Below are positions 37,176 to 49,207 of a stretch of 64,000 nt of DNA, piece by piece. The DNA is from a bacterium (GTDB taxonomy: Bacteria; Patescibacteriota; Minisyncoccia; Sungbacterales; HO2-52-23). Each line of letters starts with the position of its first letter. The stretch's first letter is position 1. A model generated the notes under the pieces. That model made no database searches. It was not told the DNA's origin and worked only from the letters and a program-made list of their open reading frames with translations. The stretch lies in the NCBI GenBank assembly GCA_030697525.1, contig JAUYPW010000013.1:2293-66292 (forward strand), in the 5' to 3' direction. The position numbers and the translations under genes are program-made.

Positions 37176-39971
37176 ATGAATAAACCAAAGACAAAAATAA
37201 TAGTTACTTTGGGTCCTTCCACCAAAGAAGAGAACGATCTTCAAAGACTTAAAGACCGGGAAGTTGATTTTGTCAGAGTCAATATGTCCCACTCTAGTCT
37301 AGAAGATCTTTCTTATTTTTTGAAGTTGGCTAAAAAGGTTGGAATTCCTTTTATAATAGATACCGAGGGTTCGCAGATACGTAGCGGAGATTTGGCAGAG
37401 GACAATCTTTATATACCAGAAAATAAAACTATACAAATACATGCCGAACCGATAATAGGTGATGTAGAAAAAATATGTTTGCGCCCAGGAATTGTTGTAC
37501 AGCAACTTGAACCCGGAGATTTAATTTACATTGATTTTGATACGCTTATTTTGCGGGTGACAGACACTTCAACCTTGGCATCCGGCTTTATCACCGCCAA
37601 AGCCCTTGCTGGAGGATCGCTGGGAAGAAATAAGGGGGTAATTGTGGACTCTTCTTTGGGTAAAAAATTGGATCTTCCCACTCTATCTCCTAAAGACTAT
37701 CAATCAATTGAGCTTGGTTTGCAAGAGGGGGTTGAACATATTGCCGCCTCATTTATGAGGTCTGGGGAATCTGTAGAAGAAGTTCGCATAGCTACCCAGA
37801 ACAAGATGAAAATAATTTCTAAGATAGAATGTCTGGACTCTCTGAAAAATCTAGACAGTATTATTGAAAAATCTGACTATTTACTGATAGACAGAGGAGA
37901 TTTGAGCAAGGAAATCCCAATTGAAAAAATTCCGCTAACGCAAAAAATAATTCTTGCTAAGGCCAAGGAAAGAAATAAGGGAGTTTTTGTTGCCACTAAT
38001 TTACTGGAAACTATGGTTGGTAAGAAAAAGCCTACTAGGGCGGAAGCTCATGATGTAATAGCTACCATTCTTGATGGGGCGTCGGGTGTGGCTCTTTCTG
38101 CGGAAACAGCCATTGGTAAGTATCCATTGGAATGCGTGAATATGATGCACAAACTAATTAATCAAGCCTCACTTATTGAGTCGGATGGGTTGTTGGAAAA
38201 ACCCTCCTCACAAATTCTAAACCGTTTAAACCCAGAAAAATATTGGTTTGAAGGAAGCGCTTCATATTTGAACGACCCCCATGGGGGTGTTTTGGTGGAT
38301 AGGACTACCACAAAAAACTACTCTAAAGATTATCTCGCCTCTTTACCGGGAATACTTTTAAGCAATGAACTTCAAATGGATGTTGAGCAGATAGGAATAG
38401 GTACATACAGCCCACTGGAGGGATTTATGCTTGAAAAGGACTTTCTATCAGTACTAAACTCCATGAGGATCGCCAATGGTGTTATTTGGCCGTTACCGAT
38501 TATCCTTGGGGTTTCTCAAGAATTGGCCAATCAATTGACGGAGGGTGGGGACGTCTCCTTGCTTGATGCCAAAGGAGAAGTAATATCTATTTTACATCTA
38601 GAACAAAAATACACATTCAGTTGGCAGAATACCTGTTTGAAGTTGTATGGCACTATTGATCAAGAGCATCCGGGGGTCAGAATGATAAAGGACACGCCTC
38701 CGGTATTATTGGGCGGTAAAATTACTCTTCTGCGAAGAAGAAATTCTCCCACAAGTTCTTATGAACTAACTCCTCGCCAAGCCAGGCGCATTTTTGATGA
38801 GCGGGGCTGGAAAAGAGTGGTCGGTTTTCATACCAGAAATGTGTTGCACCGAAGTCACGAATATATACAAATGAAAGCGTTGGAGGATAGCAGGAGCGAT
38901 GGTCTTTTTGTTCATCCTGTTGTAGGCAAGAAAAAAATAGGCGACTTCAATGCCGAATACATTATGAAAGCCTACGAGATTATGAGCGAACTATTTTATC
39001 CTGAAAATAAAGTGGTGCTAGGAGCTTTCGCTACGTACTCCCGCTATGCGGGACCGCGGGAGGCTGTATTTACGGCTCTGTGCCGGAAAAATTTCGGCTG
39101 TACACATTTTATCGTAGGACGAGATCATACTGGGGTTGGAACATTTTATCATCCGCAGGCATCCCATGATATTTTTGATAGCCTTCCTAATCTCGGCATA
39201 TCCATAATAAAGTTTGATGAAATAATTTATTCTAAAAAGTACAATTCCCATTTATCTGACAGAGAGAGCAGTGATCACTCCGAGGAAGAGAAACTAAGAC
39301 TAAGCGGGACGGAAGCGAGGAAAATGCTTGAAAGAAATGTAGCCCCTCCCGAGTGGTTTATGAGAAAGGAGATATCACAGATGCTTATTGAAGCTCTGCA
39401 AAAGGGGGAAGAAGTTTTTGTAAAAGAAAAGTATGAACTAAAAAATTCAGGCAAAGTAATTTGGTTTACCGGTTTGAGCGGTTCAGGAAAGACGACACTT
39501 GCCGGGCTATTACAGAAATCTTTGGAAGCTTCCGGGAAAAAAGTTAAGGCCATCGATGGGGATGAAATACGCAACACTGTCGCCAAAAATTTAGGTTTTA
39601 CCAGGGAAGACATCAGGACCAATAACCGCCTAATTGCCGAACTTGCCAAAAAGGAAGGGGTTATCCATGACTATGTCTTGGTGTCAGTAATTTCTCCATT
39701 TGCGGAAGATAGGAGGCTCGCCCGTTCTATTGTTGGTGATAATTTTTTAGAGGTATATGTGAACTGTCCTCTACAGAAGTGTATGGATCGGGACCCTAAG
39801 GGTATTTATAAAAAAGCTCTGGCTGGAGAGCGAGAAAAACTCATTGGTATGCCAGATGCCCTACCTTATGAGATACCTACCTCTTCAGAGATAGAGGTGA
39901 AAACAGCGGAGTCGGGCATATATCAGAATTTAGGGATTATATTGGATTTCTTAAATAGTAAGAGTTATTAA
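37176..39971 (+). CDS. trifunctional fusion: pyruvate-kinase-like barrel domain + ATP sulfurylase (PUA-like and catalytic domains) + APS kinase; a PAPS synthase with an N-terminal PK-like domain
   Basis: aa 1-330 are PK-like (KTKIIVTLGPST...VRVNMSHSS...IDTEGSQIRSG; DRGDLSKEIPIEKIPLTQK; NLLETMV; DGASGVALSAETAIGKYPLE). aa ~360-700 are ATP sulfurylase (VVGFHTRNVLHRSHEYIQ; IVGRDHTGVG). aa ~760-931 are APS kinase (VIWFTGLSGSGKTTLAGLL). Confidence 0.85.
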   Translation: MNKPKTKIIVTLGPSTKEENDLQRLKDREVDFVRVNMSHSSLEDLSYFLKLAKKVGIPFIIDTEGSQIRSGDLAEDNLYIPENKTIQIHAEPIIGDVEKICLRPGIVVQQLEPGDLIYIDFDTLILRVTDTSTLASGFITAKALAGGSLGRNKGVIVDSSLGKKLDLPTLSPKDYQSIELGLQEGVEHIAASFMRSGESVEEVRIATQNKMKIISKIECLDSLKNLDSIIEKSDYLLIDRGDLSKEIPIEKIPLTQKIILAKAKERNKGVFVATNLLETMVGKKKPTRAEAHDVIATILDGASGVALSAETAIGKYPLECVNMMHKLINQASLIESDGLLEKPSSQILNRLNPEKYWFEGSASYLNDPHGGVLVDRTTTKNYSKDYLASLPGILLSNELQMDVEQIGIGTYSPLEGFMLEKDFLSVLNSMRIANGVIWPLPIILGVSQELANQLTEGGDVSLLDAKGEVISILHLEQKYTFSWQNTCLKLYGTIDQEHPGVRMIKDTPPVLLGGKITLLRRRNSPTSSYELTPRQARRIFDERGWKRVVGFHTRNVLHRSHEYIQMKALEDSRSDGLFVHPVVGKKKIGDFNAEYIMKAYEIMSELFYPENKVVLGAFATYSRYAGPREAVFTALCRKNFGCTHFIVGRDHTGVGTFYHPQASHDIFDSLPNLGISIIKFDEIIYSKKYNSHLSDRESSDHSEEEKLRLSGTEARKMLERNVAPPEWFMRKEISQMLIEALQKGEEVFVKEKYELKNSGKVIWFTGLSGSGKTTLAGLLQKSLEASGKKVKAIDGDEIRNTVAKNLGFTREDIRTNNRLIAELAKKEGVIHDYVLVSVISPFAEDRRLARSIVGDNFLEVYVNCPLQKCMDRDPKGIYKKALAGEREKLIGMPDALPYEIPTSSEIEVKTAESGIYQNLGIILDFLNSKSY

Positions 39972-39973
39972 AT

Positions 39974-40951
39974 ATGTCAAAAATTTCAGTCGGGAAGAGA
40001 AAATACTTGGTAGAGAATTTGCTTCTGCTTGATGGTATAACCAGATCGGGCAAATTTCTGCTCGCTAATATCATTTCATCTTTCTCAAATATTGAACCAG
40101 TCCAATATTATGGGCTGCTTGAACATATTCCTTTTTTTGAGAAATTCGGTTTGATGGATAAGGATACTTCTAAAGAACTACTACAATGTGAGATAGACTT
40201 TCATTGCTACGAAACGCTGATCGGTAGAAATCTCAATCACCGAAAAACAGACAAATCCTCCATCTATCATAATCCCCAGAGTCAGTCATATATACAAAGA
40301 TCGGGAGAGAAAAATATAGATCTACTCTTGAAAAATTTCCATAATAAAAAGCCATACAGTTTTTTCATAACCCACGAAATTCTGCCGCATATAAATATCT
40401 ATCTAGAAGCATTTCCTAAAATAAAAATTATCGTAATTGAGCGAAATGCCATAGATCTTGTTTATTCGTGGTGGAGGAGGGGTATTGGAACAAGAATTGG
40501 GAATGATCCTATTATGTTCCAAATACCACTTCGCAATAATAATGGTCCGGCAGCGCCTTGGTACGCGCAATCATGGGGTAAAAAATATCATTCGCTTTCA
40601 GAGGTAGACCGCATTATATTTTCTATCAAAACACTCAAAGAGTTATACCAAAAGGCTTATCGCAAATTGACTAGTGAACAAAGAAAAAAGATTTTATTTA
40701 TTGATTACGACAATTTACTTATAAATCCGGATAAGGTTACTGAGGCAATATCCAGTTTTTTACAATTGAAAAAAAGTTCGACAGAAATAAAAAATGTTCT
40801 AAAAAAAGAACATTTGCCCAATTCCGGATCAATTAAGACAAGATCGGCTAGAACCGAAGAGTTAAGGACCGTAGCATCAAAAAAATATCTCCTGTATCTA
40901 CTAAAATTAGAAAAGGAAAACGCTTCTTTGGAAAAATTTTATAATTTTTAG
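39974..40951 (+). CDS. putative PAPS-dependent sulfotransferase
   Basis: The 5'-PSB-like P-loop is LDGITRSGKFLLANII and the 3'-PB-like motif is IIVIERNAIDLVYSWW, comparable to sulfotransferase PKSGTT and RNP.D..VS motifs. It sits immediately after the PAPS synthase, 2 nt apart. Confidence 0.55.
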   Translation: MSKISVGKRKYLVENLLLLDGITRSGKFLLANIISSFSNIEPVQYYGLLEHIPFFEKFGLMDKDTSKELLQCEIDFHCYETLIGRNLNHRKTDKSSIYHNPQSQSYIQRSGEKNIDLLLKNFHNKKPYSFFITHEILPHINIYLEAFPKIKIIVIERNAIDLVYSWWRRGIGTRIGNDPIMFQIPLRNNNGPAAPWYAQSWGKKYHSLSEVDRIIFSIKTLKELYQKAYRKLTSEQRKKILFIDYDNLLINPDKVTEAISSFLQLKKSSTEIKNVLKKEHLPNSGSIKTRSARTEELRTVASKKYLLYLLKLEKENASLEKFYNF

Positions 40952-46139: not shown

Positions 46140-46868
46140 ATGAAAAAATTTACCCAAAAAGGTCTAGTCATAATTCCAGCTCGGGGCGGATCCAAAAGGA
46201 TAAAAAATAAAAATATAAAAAATTTTCTTGGCGATCCTCTTATTGCTTACACAATCAAGCAGGCAAAACAATTAAAAATGGCTGATAGGGTTATTGTTGA
46301 CACTGATTCACCCCAAATAGCCAAGGTAGCTAGGCGTTATGGTGCGGAAGTGCCATTTTTACGTCCGGCGAATCTTGCCCAAGATAATTCTTTAGTGATT
46401 AATAGTGTTATTTATATCCTGCAGAGATTAAAGAAAGAGGAAAATTATATACCAGATTATATTATTATACTTCAAACAACCTCACCACTTCGAGAGATGA
46501 AAGATATTGAGAGTTGTTGGAAATTATTTAAAGATACGGACGCAACGACAGTGCTTACGGTTTGCGAAACTCATCCGAGATCTTATCGGCTTACTCGCGA
46601 AAATAATTTAATTTTACTTAACGGCTCTGAGAAGTATTCCACCAATGTACAAGCTTGGAATAAGCGCTATATTCTCAACGGTTGTTTCGTATATTTTGTA
46701 GAAACAGCAGCTTTACTAAGAGAGAAGGTTATCATAACCAGAAAAACTAAGGCTGTTGTATGCGACAAGTGGCGTTCGGTTGATCTAGATAATCCGGAAG
46801 ATTGGGTAATCGCGGAATTGCTTTATAGAGAGAGAAAGTCTGTTACTAAGAAGATAAAATCCATATGA
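46140..46868 (+). CDS. CMP-nonulosonic acid synthetase (acylneuraminate cytidylyltransferase family; NeuA/LegF/PseF-like)
   Basis: LVIIPARGGSKRIKNKNIKNFLGDPLIAYTI matches the CMP-NeuAc synthetase N-terminal motif. Confidence 0.75.
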   Translation: MKKFTQKGLVIIPARGGSKRIKNKNIKNFLGDPLIAYTIKQAKQLKMADRVIVDTDSPQIAKVARRYGAEVPFLRPANLAQDNSLVINSVIYILQRLKKEENYIPDYIIILQTTSPLREMKDIESCWKLFKDTDATTVLTVCETHPRSYRLTRENNLILLNGSEKYSTNVQAWNKRYILNGCFVYFVETAALLREKVIITRKTKAVVCDKWRSVDLDNPEDWVIAELLYRERKSVTKKIKSI

Positions 46869-47842
46869 ATTTAAGATTTTTAATTGTCGGCCTCGGTTCT
46901 ATGGGAAAGCGGCGTATTCGTAACCTGCTTTTTAATGGTGAGAGTGCTATTACTGGTTTTGATATTTTGCCGGAAAGGTGTCATGAGGCAGAAAAAAAAT
47001 ATGGAATAAAAATAATAAACAGGTTTAAAAACATAGCACCAAAGGACTTTGATGTCATGATAATTTCTACATCCCCAGAATTCCACGGAAACTATATTCG
47101 GTACGCTCTTAAGCACAAAAAACATTTTTTTGTTGAGCATCCCACCAACGCTGATGGTTATAAAAATATTTTTGGAAACAAAGATTCTGATACGGTAAAA
47201 GCTCCTTCGTGCACTCTACGATTCTACCGACCTATTTTGGCGATAAAAAAAATAATTGAGGAAGGGAAGATCGGAAAAATATTATCATTCCAATATCACA
47301 TGGGGCAATATCTTCCCGATTGGCATCCGTGGGAAGATTATCGAAAAGTTTATTTCTCTAAGAAAGAAACTGGTGCGTGTCGTGAGATGCTTCCTTTCGA
47401 ATTAATTTGGCTGAATTGGGTTTTGGGTTCCAAAGTAAAAGAAGCTCGCGGTTTTATACGGAAAGTATCAGAGCTAGATATGAAAGCGGAAGATGTGGTG
47501 ACCGCCAGTGTGCTTTACGAAAATAACATAACAGGGAATATCATGATTGATGTTGTTTCCAGAAAACCTTTCAGAACCTTACGAATTATGGGTTCCAAAG
47601 GGGTTTTGGATTGGGAAAAATTTGATTCAAACTTAAGACTATACGATGCCAAATCCCAAGAAACCAAAACCATATCAGTGCCCAAAGGTCATCCCGAAAC
47701 AGGCTATGTAAATGAGGAGGAAATGTACCAAAAAGAGATAAAGGCTTTTCTTGACGCTGTTTACGGCAAGGCAAAATATCCTTTTACTTTTGAGGAAAAC
47801 TTATTGAATCTTAAGGTGCTTTTTGGGCTTCTGCGCAAGTAG
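46865..47842 (+). CDS. Gfo/Idh/MocA-family NAD(P)-dependent oxidoreductase
   Basis: The N-terminal Rossmann region is LRFLIVGLGSMGKRRIRNLL. The protein is 325 aa. Confidence 0.65.
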   Translation: MNLRFLIVGLGSMGKRRIRNLLFNGESAITGFDILPERCHEAEKKYGIKIINRFKNIAPKDFDVMIISTSPEFHGNYIRYALKHKKHFFVEHPTNADGYKNIFGNKDSDTVKAPSCTLRFYRPILAIKKIIEEGKIGKILSFQYHMGQYLPDWHPWEDYRKVYFSKKETGACREMLPFELIWLNWVLGSKVKEARGFIRKVSELDMKAEDVVTASVLYENNITGNIMIDVVSRKPFRTLRIMGSKGVLDWEKFDSNLRLYDAKSQETKTISVPKGHPETGYVNEEEMYQKEIKAFLDAVYGKAKYPFTFEENLLNLKVLFGLLRK

Positions 47843-47873
47843 TTACTTCCATTTTTAAGCAGGGGTTATAATA

Positions 47874-48145
47874 GGAGACCAGGATTCGAACTAACATCAA
47901 TTTAGTGAATCAATTCCCGTCCCAGATTCAAGGCGCGAGAAGCGAAGTGTATCTTTAGATACACGAGCGACGAGAAACGCAGAAGATGGGCGGGAATTGA
48001 TTCACCCGAAGGGAAGAGAGAATTTGGCCAATTTCTTCGTCACTCCTCGGAGAGGTGCTGGTCAGCACGATCTCCTTGTCGTTCCTAGAACTTGGCTCAA
48101 ATTCTCTCTTCTAAACTCTGATGCTAGTTCGAATCCTGGTCTCCA
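47874..48145. repeat. 272-nt nested perfect-palindrome element (22-bp terminal inverted repeats plus at least five internal perfect hairpins) directly abutting the neuB-like start codon
   Basis: The terminal inverted repeats are GGAGACCAGGATTCGAACTAAC and GCTAGTTCGAATCCTGGTCTCC. Internal perfect pairs are GTGAATCAATTCCCG/CGGGAATTGATTCAC, GTGTATCT-tt-AGATACAC, GAAGAGAGAATTTG/CAAATTCTCTCTTC, CCTC-gga-GAGG and GTGCTG-gt-CAGCAC. Confidence 0.6.
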
Positions 48146-48151
48146 AAGTAT

Positions 48152-49207
48152 ATGGCGCAAAGAGTCTTAAAGATAGGAAGAAAATTGGTTGGTTCAGGCC
48201 AGCCCGTTTTTATAATCGCCGAGGCTGGAGTAAATCACAACGGCAGATTGGATTTGGCTTTGCGGCTTGTAGATGCTGCGGCTGGTGCCGGAGCCGATGC
48301 TATAAAATTCCAGACCTTCAAAGCGGAGGGGGTTGTCACTAAAGGCGGAGAATTAGTTGCCTATCAAAAAAATAATATAAGAAAATTCAAAAATCAGCTT
48401 GACATGCTTAGAAGTTTGGAAATAAAAGAATCGTTCTACAAATCTATTATCAAGCGATGCGAGAAAAAAAATATAATTTTTTTATCTACACCGCACGGTG
48501 GTTTCCAGAGCGTTGATTTTTTAGAAAAGTTTAAGGTATCAGCATTCAAATTCGGATCAGGCGATATTACCAATCTTCCTCTTTTGGCGTATGCCGCGCA
48601 TTTTAAAAAACCGATAATATTGGGAACCGGTATGTCTAATATGCAGGAGGTGAGAGATGCCATCCGGTGCATCAAGAAAGCTGGTAATGACAAAATTGTA
48701 GTTCTACACTGTACCACCAGCTATCCCTGCCCACATGATGAAGTTAATCTTGCGGCTATGAGAAGTATGGCAAAAGAGCTGGATGTTCTGATCGGCTATT
48801 CAGATCACACCCATGGTATCCAGGCGGCGGTTATGGCTACTACCCTAGGCGCTAGTGTAATTGAAAAACATCTCACTTTGGATAAAAATTTTTCTGGACC
48901 TGATCATAAAGCCTCTGTTGAGCCAAAAGAATTTAAAGAGATGGTTGAATGGTTGCGTAATATACCAATCGTCTTGGGAAGTTCTTCTAAGAAGCCCACA
49001 GAACAGGAGTTGCTACACCGTCATCTGGTTAGAAAGAGTTTGGTTGCAGATAAAGATATTATGAAAGGAGAAATTTTTACGGAAAATAATTTAGCCATAA
49101 AACGTCCCGGAACAGGTATGATGCCGGAGCGATATTTTTCAATCATCGGTAAAAGGGCAAAAAGAAATATAAGTAAAGATACAATATTGAGACAAAATGA
49201 TTATTGA
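48152..49207 (+). CDS. N-acylneuraminate-9-phosphate / nonulosonic acid synthase (NeuB/LegI/PseI family) with C-terminal SAF domain
   Basis: VFIIAEAGVNHNGRLDLALRLVDAAAGAGADAIKFQTF is canonical NeuB. The C-terminal SAF/antifreeze-like domain is present. Confidence 0.85.
   Translation: MAQRVLKIGRKLVGSGQPVFIIAEAGVNHNGRLDLALRLVDAAAGAGADAIKFQTFKAEGVVTKGGELVAYQKNNIRKFKNQLDMLRSLEIKESFYKSIIKRCEKKNIIFLSTPHGGFQSVDFLEKFKVSAFKFGSGDITNLPLLAYAAHFKKPIILGTGMSNMQEVRDAIRCIKKAGNDKIVVLHCTTSYPCPHDEVNLAAMRSMAKELDVLIGYSDHTHGIQAAVMATTLGASVIEKHLTLDKNFSGPDHKASVEPKEFKEMVEWLRNIPIVLGSSSKKPTEQELLHRHLVRKSLVADKDIMKGEIFTENNLAIKRPGTGMMPERYFSIIGKRAKRNISKDTILRQNDY

Follow-up and report, generated by a model that had tools for sequence, protein, structure and literature searches.

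Several kinds of small palindromic element have been described that resemble, in one respect or another, the one reported here. Correia elements of Neisseria (CREE or NEMIS) measure 100-155 bp, consist of one hairpin, are flanked by a duplicated TA target and number in the hundreds. REP units span about 20-40 nt and REPINs about 100 nt; they are present in tens to hundreds of copies, in genomes that hold a RAYT transposase gene. The T-shaped inverted terminal repeats of AAV are the telomere-like ends of linear single-stranded viral genomes, and foldback elements carry the long transposon arms known from eukaryotes. CPR/Patescibacteria have tiny genomes, in which mobile DNA is usually said to be scarce; our full-text literature search on MITEs in these bacteria returned a single paper, on an unrelated subject. 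For prokaryotic MITEs in general, PMC10969869 describes elements shorter than 500 bp that end in terminal repeats of about 4-30 bp, have A+T-rich intergenic targets and fold very stably when transcribed; it adds that the flanking direct repeats fade with age. For CREE, PMC2649163 describes promoters at the ends, IHF binding and cutting or protection by RNase III.

We analysed a 64,000-nucleotide stretch of DNA, hereafter the window, from an ultra-small groundwater bacterium. An earlier note on this DNA had described an element of nested palindromes, 272 nt long, bounded by 22-bp terminal inverted repeats. The element is real and folds far better than chance (z of about -13), although comparison of copies places its end at 48144 rather than 48145, which gives a length of 271 bp (Table 1). 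The left boundary is also supported by a contig from the Logan assemblies, L002, which ends exactly 30 nt into the element.

Table 1. Features of the element and its neighbours, in window positions
Feature	Positions	Strand	Remarks
Gfo/Idh/MocA oxidoreductase gene	46865..47842	+	upstream neighbour
TATAAT box, -10-like	47867..47872	+	ends 1 nt before the element; putative promoter role
Palindromic element, whole	47874..48144	.	271 bp; boundaries lie where the copies stop aligning
Left terminal inverted repeat	47874..47899	.	5' strand of closing helix P1; GGAGACCAGGATTCGAACTAACATCA
Hairpin arm P2	47905..48005	.	15-bp perfect base (47905-47919 with 47991-48005), bulge, purine-rich internal loops, apical hairpin
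Purine-rich motif, copy 1	47934..47942	+	CGCGAGAAG here, CACGAGGAG in most copies; P2 5' internal loop; from alignments
P2 apical hairpin	47947..47964	.	GTGTATC TTTA GATACAC; other copies GTGTGCC AGTA GGCACAT
Purine-rich motif, copy 2	47967..47976	+	GCGACGAGAA; P2 3' internal loop
P2/P3 junction CCGAAGG	48006..48012	.	invariant in 7/7 sequences aligned, possibly in part by ascertainment, since it adjoins the 23-mer that retrieved five loci
Hairpin arm P3	48013..48111	.	14-bp perfect base (48013-48026 with 48098-48111), pyrimidine-rich internal loops, apical hairpin
Motif copy 3, reversed	48043..48049	-	CTCCTCG; P3 5' internal loop
Motif copy 4, reversed	48072..48081	-	CTCCTTGTCG here, CTCCTCGTCG in most copies; P3 3' internal loop
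Right terminal inverted repeat	48119..48144	.	3' strand of P1
NeuB-family synthase gene	48152..49207	+	downstream neighbour; ATG at 48152, 7 nt (AAAGTAT) past the element's end

The terminal repeats are 96% complementary over 26 bp, with one mismatch and a perfect outer 20 bp; the proposed 22-mers differ at position 21 (A versus G). Among the inner stems claimed by the earlier note, those of 15 and 14 bp are indeed perfect, whereas the stem given as 8 bp consists of 7 bp with a 4-nt loop and the small distal pair measures 5 bp each. The stem cores are free of G-U pairs and bulges, as had been said of the whole, but the complete arms are imperfect: they contain a bulged base and large internal loops, the closing stem has an A.C mismatch, and a conserved G.U pair sits at the base of the second arm. 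P3 resembles the reverse complement of P2, and the two halves of the element are related in the same way, with the result that the two strands adopt like folds; the orientation to neighbouring genes varies. Each half contains two of four CGACGAGGAG-like motifs, in mirror orientation and spaced by about 31 bp, or three helical turns. The G+C content is 48%, against 40% for the window and 29% for the flank. The element has no coding capacity: 1-nt insertions and deletions distinguish the copies, and no open reading frame is conserved among them. ARAGORN made no tRNA or tmRNA prediction in the window or in any locus that bears a copy, and no family in Rfam 15 covers the element, even at thresholds of E ≤ 10 for the window and E ≤ 5 for five other loci.

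Folding calculations of the kind suggested by the earlier note gave a structure far beyond that of shuffled sequences. The minimum free energy is -141.9 kcal/mol for the plus strand (z = -13.0) and -145.1 kcal/mol for the minus strand (z = -14.5); with DNA folding parameters it is -79.3 (z = -12.3), and no shuffled sequence matched the element in any of the three calculations. In the alignment of copies, 98.3% of the pair cells are paired. Ten base pairs have changed on both sides, compared with 4.5 ± 1.3 in shuffles, none of which (0/500) reached ten, and sliding the pair partners abolished the compensatory changes. Four of the compensatory pairs fall in P1, and four in P2, where two belong to the base helix and two to the apical hairpin (A-U to G-C and U-A to C-G). 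The terminal repeats remain complementary in all four full copies. On the plus strand, G.U exceeds A.C by 19 to 5 cells, which by pair is a non-significant 10 to 4. Given this and the near symmetry of the element, no strand can be assigned to a putative RNA.

Copies elsewhere were sought in two genome scans. The first, for both ends spaced 220-250 nt apart, found no match; the second, for an exact interior 23-mer, found five loci, and because that 23-mer is central, the apparent invariance of the element's centre is partly a matter of ascertainment. The family as seen occupies six distinct loci in five genomes or populations of Harrisonbacteria and other Parcubacteria, beside the mutually unrelated genes for enolase, metG, pilB/pilC and a glycosyltransferase, and in mixed orientation. 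Full copies measure 269-271 bp: one (L008) lies 5 nt before the enolase ATG, another (L010), on the opposite strand, precedes the metG ATG by 2 nt, and a third (L009) touches the pilB stop codon. A partial copy at the same locus as L009 (L001) is ended by the contig edge, and two more copies (L007, L011) are truncated. Pairwise identity is 84-90%, although the proteins of the host lineages are only about 60-70% identical. The enolase and metG copies reside in one genome and have diverged; at 84% they are no closer than copies from different genomes (up to 90%), a pattern that gives no hint of a recent burst. Per genome, no more than two full copies and a remnant were seen. Viral, phage and plasmid collections contained no match, and within the window no further copy was found by pattern search, BLAST or nhmmer; the window held no extra matches to the termini either, and BLAST of the fetched loci gave no additional copy.

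The pilB site also offers a view of loss. Where PilB is 93-94% identical to the L009 protein, the genomes have no element at this site, only a 13-nt remnant, GCAGACCAGAACG, which matches the element's terminus and lies at the equivalent position, and a more distant relative (L023, PilB 70% identical) has neither element nor remnant. Judged from these comparisons, the element was gained and then lost among these relatives. A second terminal remnant, ATCCTGGTCTCC, lies 58 nt from the enolase copy; the two remnants are 12-13 nt long. For the enolase locus itself, an empty site was sought among relatives, the closest of which are 61-63% identical and too distant for comparison. Logan contigs of the same strain as the window break inside the element, 30 nt from the left end and again at position 215. 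A de Bruijn graph assembled with k = 31 should interrupt a repeat in just this way, and the breaks indicate that the element is multi-copy in the source sample.

As the earlier note stated, the window copy lies between a Gfo/Idh/MocA gene and a NeuB synthase gene; the gap to the NeuB start codon, there given as 6 nt, is one base longer. Both junctions of the element were assembled independently in same-strain Logan contigs, and an NCBI metagenome-assembled genome holds a protein identical to the window's Gfo/Idh/MocA. Two relatives lack the element. In L004 (Gfo 83% identical) 36 nt separate the Gfo stop from the NeuB ATG, and in L005 (Gfo 73% identical) the two genes overlap by 4 nt; the neuB start codon is conserved in both. 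At the empty site of L004 we observed TATAGT, then 6 nt, then ATG, and a comparison of lengths suggests that the window site, with the element removed, exceeds this empty site by 2 nt. From these comparisons, the window element is an insertion into the Gfo-NeuB junction. The proposal of a MITE-like insertion at the DNA level rather than a riboswitch is thus supported by the two empty relatives, at least five other contexts and the absence of an Rfam family. A simple promoter scan found no full two-hexamer site and no promoter-like site inside the element. We rejected the idea that leaderless promoters are the rule in this genome, as a -10-like box stands 4-9 nt before the ATG in only 7/54 window genes; a promoter reading is proposed for particular sites alone. 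An intrinsic terminator was likewise discarded, for the bases after P1 form no consistent U run, and so was a pre-existing hairpin around the neuB start, which was not significant against shuffled sequence: pairing between the flanks around the AUG has z = -1.7 in the window and +1.1 at the empty site. No transposase, integrase, reverse transcriptase or recombinase is found among the 55 open reading frames of the window.

The earlier note had expected dispersed copies with target-site duplications; dispersed copies exist, but no duplication is evident at the four complete copies, and matching flanks occur only at L010, with TAT on both sides. The junctions consist mostly of A and T, and the flanking dinucleotide is TA at 4/10 of the ends read from full and truncated copies. 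Five left junctions were read, and in two of them (the window and L008) an exact TATAAT ends 1 nt short of the element. A start codon lies 2-7 nt away in 3/4 full copies, and several copies are 0-7 nt from a start or stop codon. The left flanks share no fixed target of 4-5 nt, and insertion of the IS200/IS605 type was rejected. With the copy at pilB, a TTGGTC hexamer arises 16 nt ahead of a TATAAT that belongs to the site, a possible promoter arrangement. Separately, an unrelated small palindromic element, E2, lies between a TATAAT box and the ATG of pilC.

Set against the described systems, the element shares features with several. Like CREE it is small, non-coding and bounded by 26-bp terminal inverted repeats, lies between genes near gene starts, forms long hairpins and is probably transcribed with its neighbours, and by this analogy it may behave in a CREE-like manner. 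It shares no sequence with CREE, however, and differs in its CPR hosts, its length of 271 bp, its two nested arms of about 100 nt, the lack of a clear duplication and a copy number of at most 2-3 seen per genome. With generic MITEs such as QMITE2 of Coxiella, ERIC and RUP it has in common a length below 500 bp, an A+T-rich intergenic target, a stable transcript fold and terminal repeats of comparable length (23-29 bp against 26 bp; PMC10969869). It is, like them, non-coding and polymorphic for presence, whereas it has no visible flanking direct repeats and its nested A-B-B'-C-C'-A' palindrome layout is unusual. On the marks by which a MITE is recognized, its length and lack of coding capacity, its terminal repeats and its dispersed copies with presence/absence polymorphism all agree; as to base composition, the targets are A+T-rich, but the element, being richer in G+C than the window, is unlike typical A+T-rich MITEs.

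REPINs and BIMEs are also inverted pairs of hairpin units, intergenic, without target-site duplication and with compensatory pairing, but the half-units of our element measure about 135 nt, it has true terminal inverted repeats and only 1-3 copies were seen, which sets it outside the REPINs. The order A-B-B'-C-C'-A', an outer stem closing two inner palindromes, is that of the AAV terminal repeats, and mirror symmetry of the whole unit is shared with eukaryotic foldback elements; in contrast to both, this is a short element in a bacterial chromosome, with no Rep or HUH-endonuclease gene nearby and no evidence of homology. Invertons, finally, have inverted repeats of about 20-30 bp around some 200 bp upstream of surface-glycan genes, as here, while our element has a mirror-symmetric, promoterless interior, is dispersed beside housekeeping genes and has no recombinase nearby, and we do not class it as one.

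Four other explanations deserve consideration. The earlier note had suggested that the 3' arm sequesters the neuB initiation region and so gates translation or transcription of neuB and of the nonulosonic-acid half of the cluster. The element does lie within the operon, 7 nt ahead of the neuB ATG, where it separates a TATAAT box from that ATG in a putative promoter arrangement, and in a longer fold the flanks, AUG included, pair weakly around it. Yet all of the 3' arm is taken up by pairing with the 5' arm of the element, and the AUG falls beyond that helix by 7 nt, which leaves the proposed gating unsupported, and the pairing of the flanks is no better than that of shuffled sequence. Relatives have the same operon without the element, no asymmetric sensing domain or Rfam match was found, and because the same element adjoins unrelated housekeeping genes (enolase, metG), as well as pilB/pilC and a glycosyltransferase, in either orientation, there is no specific link to neuB. 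We consider this reading very improbable; the element is probably not a ligand- or signal-controlled gate. Even less credible is an inverton, in which a recombinase would flip the 219-bp segment between the 26-bp repeats and so switch a surface-glycan promoter. Inverted repeats of such a size that enclose about 200 bp ahead of surface-polysaccharide genes form the classic layout, known from Bacteroides capsule promoters, and the orientation to flanking genes differs among loci. Flipping a nearly mirror-symmetric interior would change little, however; no promoter-like site was found inside, the family also lies beside housekeeping genes, and no recombinase gene is present in the window. For the same two loci, independent assemblies agree on a single orientation, and the Logan contig stops 30 nt into the element rather than at the 26-nt repeat boundary, where coexisting orientations would presumably have broken it.

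A free-standing, trans-acting structured RNA gene family (protein-binding or sponge-like, in the manner of Y RNA or 6S RNA), at positions that differ by genome, would account for the extremely stable fold with its ten compensatory pairs, for copies that remain 84-90% identical despite far more divergent proteins, for the TATAAT just ahead of the element in the window and L008, and for the excess of G.U over A.C cells on the plus strand. That excess, though, is not significant by pair, both strands of the near-mirror structure fold alike, promoter and terminator are not conserved among copies, and Rfam holds no matching family. The element is also absent from the same site in close relatives, decays visibly into truncated copies and terminal remnants, is present as two diverged copies in one genome and, in several copies, lies within 0-7 nt of the start or stop codon of an adjoining gene, where an independent gene would hardly be expected; we think this account unlikely. 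The remaining possibility concerns the termini. The outer 18 nt of the right terminal repeat (GTTCGAATCCTGGTCTCC) resemble, in what we take by eye to be the register, tRNA positions 53-70, and those of each end can be read as a T-loop, the 3' strand of a T-stem and the first five acceptor bases. The element might then be what is left of an integrative element with tRNA 3' ends as its target, or a miniature derived from one, or else an RNA that mimics tRNA. A 10-mer such as GTTCGAATCC is unlikely by chance, and a tRNA-Glu gene lies 82 nt from the enolase copy. This tRNA, however, carries a different T-arm; the GCTAG before the supposed T-loop (TTCGAAT) cannot form a T-stem with CCTGG, the loop itself is base-paired within P1, the likeness ends 2 nt short of a full acceptor stem with no conservation in the flanks beyond, and the element's repeats are inverted, unlike integrase attachment sites, which are direct repeats. 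ARAGORN and Rfam find no tRNA in any copy, in agreement with the earlier note's remark that the T-loop lookalike does not fold as one. An origin from tRNA is therefore about as doubtful as the gating of neuB. We also rejected an intron-split tRNA gene, as the element has no D arm, anticodon arm or group I match in Rfam; the group I introns reported in Patescibacteria tRNAs interrupt position 35/36 of otherwise normal tRNAs (PMC13011429).

We therefore favour, with a probability of roughly 70%, the hypothesis that the element belongs to a previously undescribed family of non-coding, non-autonomous, MITE-like foldback elements of about 270 bp, moved in trans and carried passively. Its hosts would be Harrisonbacteria and other Parcubacteria (CPR/Patescibacteria), and each copy would represent a near-mirror pair of half-units, a terminal repeat plus one hairpin arm, so that either strand folds into the same closed Y shape. 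A transposase encoded elsewhere would recognize the 26-bp ends, and possibly the four internal motifs as well, and would insert the element into A+T-rich DNA near promoters and gene boundaries; the window copy would have landed 1 nt past the TATAAT box, in the former 36-nt spacer before neuB. From then on it is probably a passive passenger, transcribed with the Gfo-NeuB operon. Pairing between the two ends would make the insert a closed structure of its own, with the AUG outside the helix. The side effects to be expected are those of the Neisseria Correia elements, namely a long, perfect RNA duplex that RNase III may cut, and some polarity or a change in mRNA stability. Copies would decay through truncation and deletion. 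We counted the low copy number per genome and the lack of an evident target-site duplication against this hypothesis. The compensatory changes and the 84-90% identity across diverged lineages could instead reflect selection for a host or RNA function.

A variant that we hold tentatively, and regard as improbable, is a foldback element, specific to CPR bacteria, that would travel as a folded single strand and would be attracted by the melted DNA of promoters. The intermediate would be a T- or Y-shaped hairpin like a parvovirus terminal repeat, handled by an HUH-type or novel enzyme, and the target would be the stretch between -10 box and start codon. A transcript with little or no leader would thereby acquire a closed, end-paired 5' domain, a portable leader that stabilizes or insulates the mRNA. 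What keeps this version in play is the missing duplication, TATAAT at 2/5 left junctions, start-codon proximity in 3/4 full copies, the E2 element at pilC and the compensatory pairing.

For the neuB cluster itself, the effect of the element is probably minor. If the family is confirmed, its 271-bp signature would give annotators something to mask, avoiding miscalls as riboswitches or tRNA fragments, and the family would account for one way in which metagenome-assembled genomes from these bacteria are broken. Its existence would also mean that Harrisonbacteria and other Parcubacteria are indeed open to the spread of small non-autonomous repeats, and that these land within a few bases of the start and stop codons of essential genes such as enolase and metG, in which case transcription and translation in these bacteria must tolerate them.

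The 271-bp palindromic element between the Gfo/Idh/MocA gene and neuB occupies a 309-nt gap in a + strand operon that is otherwise tightly packed. The same gene pair occurs in two relatives that lack it, which marks it as an insertion: in L004 (Gfo 83% identical) 36 nt separate the Gfo stop from the NeuB ATG, and in L005 (Gfo 73% identical) there is a 4-nt overlap between the genes. Without the element, the window spacer equals the L004 spacer plus 2 nt, an excess that is consistent with a 2-bp duplication without proving one. The dispersed copies that the earlier note proposed to look for do exist: a search with a terminal 20-mer returned one metagenome contig (L001, Hainich groundwater), in which a right half-copy adjoins a flank unlike that of the window, and a search of GTDB genomes with an interior 23-mer returned five loci, in which the pattern itself forces the apparent invariance of 48013-48035. 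The window copy and the full copies are 84-90% identical in pairwise comparison, and the two from one Harrisonbacteria genome (L008 and L010) are, at 84%, no closer than between-genome pairs. The record behind L009 (CAYHZT010000006.1) is labelled 'uncultured Candidatus Saccharibacteria', a label that looks wrong: the PilB encoded there shares 94% identity with a protein of Harrisonbacteria, whose element copies are also the nearest to the L009 copy. The truncated side of the L011 copy abuts the ATG of a small opposite-strand gene, whose arrival may have cost the copy its left 96 nt.

Evidence on the left boundary and on copy number comes from two short-read Logan contigs of the window's strain, which we take to have been assembled as a de Bruijn graph at k = 31. 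In such a graph a unique flank extends k-1 bases into a repeat. Contig L002 stops at 47903, exactly 30 nt inside the element, and L003 begins at 48088, also inside it; the 30-nt break therefore sets the left boundary to 47874 and implies that more copies exist in the source sample. An inversion between the 26-nt repeats would predict a break at 26 nt rather than the 30 seen.

Repeat finding and folding bear out the sequence and nested inverted repeats described in the earlier note for 47874-48144. Its 22-bp terminal repeats are present as an inverted repeat, but the quoted 22-mers mismatch at position 21; perfect pairing free of G-U pairs and bulges holds for the stem cores and not elsewhere in the fold; and the element ends at 48144, which is 7 nt, not 6, ahead of the neuB ATG. 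The + strand RNA is predicted to form a closed Y, in which helix P1 bears two arms of about 100 nt, P2 and P3; both arms contain internal loops and are capped by a small hairpin. The minimum free energy is -141.9 kcal/mol on the + strand, against -75.9 +/- 5.1 in shuffles (z = -13.0), and -145.1 kcal/mol on the - strand (z = -14.5); with DNA parameters it is -79.3 kcal/mol (z = -12.3). Neither ARAGORN (no tRNA, as the earlier note had said) nor Rfam (threshold E <= 10) finds a match on the element, and nothing in Rfam or the phage and plasmid collections resembles it in sequence. At each end, the outermost 18 nt resemble tRNA positions 53-70 (T-loop TTCGAAT, T-stem strand CCTGG, acceptor strand TCTCC); they also contain TTCGAA, CCWGG and GGTCTC, which are palindromes or recognition sites.

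Coordinates and contexts of the element, its copies and neighbouring features (bare positions refer to the window)
Feature	Position	Strand	Detail
Gfo/Idh/MocA gene	46865-47842	+	follows cytidylyltransferase gene
NeuB gene	48152-49207	+	followed by NeuC-like epimerase, then acetyltransferases
931-aa fusion gene	37176-39971		pyruvate-kinase barrel, PUA-like domain, ATP sulfurylase, APS kinase
Sulfotransferase gene	39974-40951		directly after fusion gene
ORF, 394 aa	44955-46139		inside nonulosonic-acid gene block
ORF, 605 aa	30497-32314
ORF, 475 aa	55755-57182
P1, 26-nt terminal inverted pair	47874-47899 / 48119-48144		96% complementary, outer 20 bp perfect
P2, 18-nt inverted pair	47905-47922 / 47988-48005
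P3, 14-nt inverted pair	48013-48026 / 48098-48111		perfect
tRNA-like outer 18 nt	47874-47891, 48127-48144
CGACGAGGAG-like motif, four copies (alignment reading)	47934-47976 and 48043-48081		two forward (P2 loops), two reversed (P3 loops)
Spacer, window			...GGTTATAATA(element)AAAGTAT-ATG
Spacer, empty site	L004		...GGTTATAGTAGATAT-ATG
Full copy	L008		5 nt ahead of enolase ATG
Full copy	L010	antisense to both genes	between membrane-protein gene stop and metG, 2 nt from metG ATG
Full copy	L009 (same locus as L001)		touches pilB stop codon; 13 nt upstream of TATAAT box before pilC
3'-truncated copy	L007		upstream of glycosyltransferase gene
5'-truncated copy	L011		11 nt upstream of TATAAT-N7-ATG gene start
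Small gene	L011:1051-1425	+ (locus)	probable start MFFKFPKNDSKFAWTQHIKDKM..., begins exactly at truncation
pilB locus, state 1	L009		pilB-TAA(element)TGTTTTGATGTGCTATAAT
pilB locus, state 2	L012-L022		PilB 93-94% identical, no element; TAG-GCAGACCAGAACG-TTTTTTTGATGTGTTATAAT
pilB locus, state 3	L023		PilB 70% identical; TAA-TGTGTTACAAT..., element and remnant absent
Remnant GCAGACCAGAACG	L017:3144-3156		just after pilB stop; same in L012-L016, L018, L019, L021, L022; variant in L020
Remnant ATCCTGGTCTCC	L008:4650-4661		between tRNA-Glu gene and full copy, 58 nt left of copy
E2	L012:3252-3363		also L013-L016, L019, L021
E2 variant, 87.5% identical	L018:2901-3001
16S rRNA gene 3' end	L009:1-144
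LAGLIDADG homing-endonuclease gene	L016:1-47		one Harrisonbacteria contig; runs off locus end, upstream of pilin genes

In a seven-sequence alignment of copies, the consensus structure comprises 91 pairs with 98.3% of cells paired. Ten pairs show two-sided changes (four in P1, four in P2, two at the tip of P3), against 4.5 +/- 1.3 in shuffles, where ten was reached in 0/500, and zero in a slid-partner control. On the + strand, G.U cells outnumber A.C mismatches by 19 to 5; counted by pair (10 vs 4) the difference is not significant. When the right half is reverse-complemented, the left half resembles it well past the terminal repeat, with interior half-versus-half scores of 52-53 in L009 and L008 (shuffles about 3 +/- 8) and a fainter signal in the window copy and L010. 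The layout is A-B-B'-C-C'-A', giving the same Y from either strand, which fits the mixed orientation of copies relative to host genes. Both strands of the P2 internal loops are rich in purines (CACGAGGAG and GCGACGAG), and the P3 loops carry the complement (CTCCTCGTCG, twice). As duplex DNA, this can be read as one motif present four times, two per half in mirror orientation and about 31 bp, or three helical turns, apart. On the + strand these motifs resemble Shine-Dalgarno (GAGGAG) and anti-Shine-Dalgarno (CCUCCU) sequences; L010 has matched 1-nt insertions in them, GAGGAAG and CTTCCTC. The P2 and P3 loops could pair with each other, and their complementarity may be a mere consequence of the mirror symmetry.

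The pilB locus exists in three states, the second of which keeps a 13-nt GCAGACCAGAACG that matches the element's first 9 nt at 8/9 positions, continues with AAC and forms no convincing terminator. The simplest history is that the ancestor shared by the L009 and L012-L022 groups gained the element and that deletion later reduced it to the remnant. Comparison of junctions reveals no shared flanking sequence and no consistent target-site duplication of the kind expected of a MITE. Sequence at the junctions is rich in A+T. In the window and in L008 an exact TATAAT stops 1 nt short of the left end, and the empty site L004 reads TATAGT-N6-ATG. By arithmetic from base composition, we estimate the chance probability of TATAAT at that offset in 2/5 left junctions to be of the order of 1e-5 to 1e-4. 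The distance to a start codon is 2-7 nt in three of the four full copies; the fourth lies 0 nt from a stop codon. From this placement we infer insertion into promoter-proximal A+T-rich DNA, at times between the -10 box and the start codon; it could reflect a true target preference or simply the scarcity of non-coding DNA in these genomes. A Shine-Dalgarno-like motif (GGAG, GAGG or AGGA, 4-20 nt upstream of ATG) precedes 8/55 window genes and a -10-like box lies 4-9 nt ahead of the ATG in 7/54; together, the few Shine-Dalgarno motifs and the TATAAT-like boxes close to ATG, also seen before several operon-first genes (for example 7589, 8676 and 29629), hint at transcripts with very short leaders or none. 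An unrelated palindromic element of about 101-112 nt, E2, with 14-bp terminal repeats (CCCGTTAGAAGTGG / CCACTTCTAACGGG), separates the TATAAT box from the pilC ATG, ending 0 nt before the ATG, and is missing from L017, L020 and L009. E2 is a further example, from Harrisonbacteria, of a hairpin element that has entered the interval from a -10 box to a start codon.

The host is a CPR bacterium of Parcubacteria type; its Gfo is identical to a protein of an NCBI metagenome-assembled genome, and the closest named relatives of this Gfo come from Parcubacteria, Niyogibacteria, Harrisonbacteria and Magasanikbacteria. The window is a single large surface-glycan island, whose product the ATP sulfurylase/APS kinase fusion and adjoining sulfotransferase gene suggest to be sulfated. 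For three long ORFs in the island (394, 605 and 475 aa), Pfam gives no match at E <= 1e-3 or 1e-5.

The element is an inserted, dispersed, non-coding and decaying sequence whose ends are kept paired, in line with the MITE-like reading of the earlier note, and we put the probability that it belongs to a new MITE-like family at roughly 0.7. The element would be moved by a transposase encoded elsewhere that recognizes its 26-bp ends and perhaps also the four motifs inside it; a Pfam scan of all 55 long window ORFs found no transposase, integrase or reverse transcriptase. The element agrees with prokaryotic MITEs, as characterized in the review PMC10969869, in all but two respects, namely that it shows no clear direct repeats and has no known parent insertion sequence; the review states that MITE direct repeats fade with age. 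No account of MITEs in CPR bacteria turned up in a literature search. A more unusual mechanism, in which a single-stranded hairpin intermediate targets promoters, seems improbable to us. The earlier note had also proposed that the element gates neuB by sequestering its start. The window copy would be co-transcribed with the operon, but P1 would seal the insert on itself, leaving the AUG 7 nt beyond the helix and hence unsequestered, and extra pairing between the flanks is no better than chance; gating by this route is not upheld.

In architecture, this MITE-like element comes closest to REPINs, foldback elements and the T-shaped AAV terminal repeat; in function, its nearest analogue is the Correia element, for which PMC2649163 describes RNase III cleavage, changes in mRNA stability and hybrid promoters formed at the ends. 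By analogy, cleavage of the 26-bp duplex by RNase III, changed mRNA stability and hybrid promoters at its ends are plausible side effects here. Since it is tolerated directly ahead of enolase and metG, the element cannot block expression, and its truncated copies and terminal remnants point to a dispensable, decaying sequence. Because Logan contigs of the window's strain break inside it, the element is a likely cause of fragmented assemblies in such genomes.
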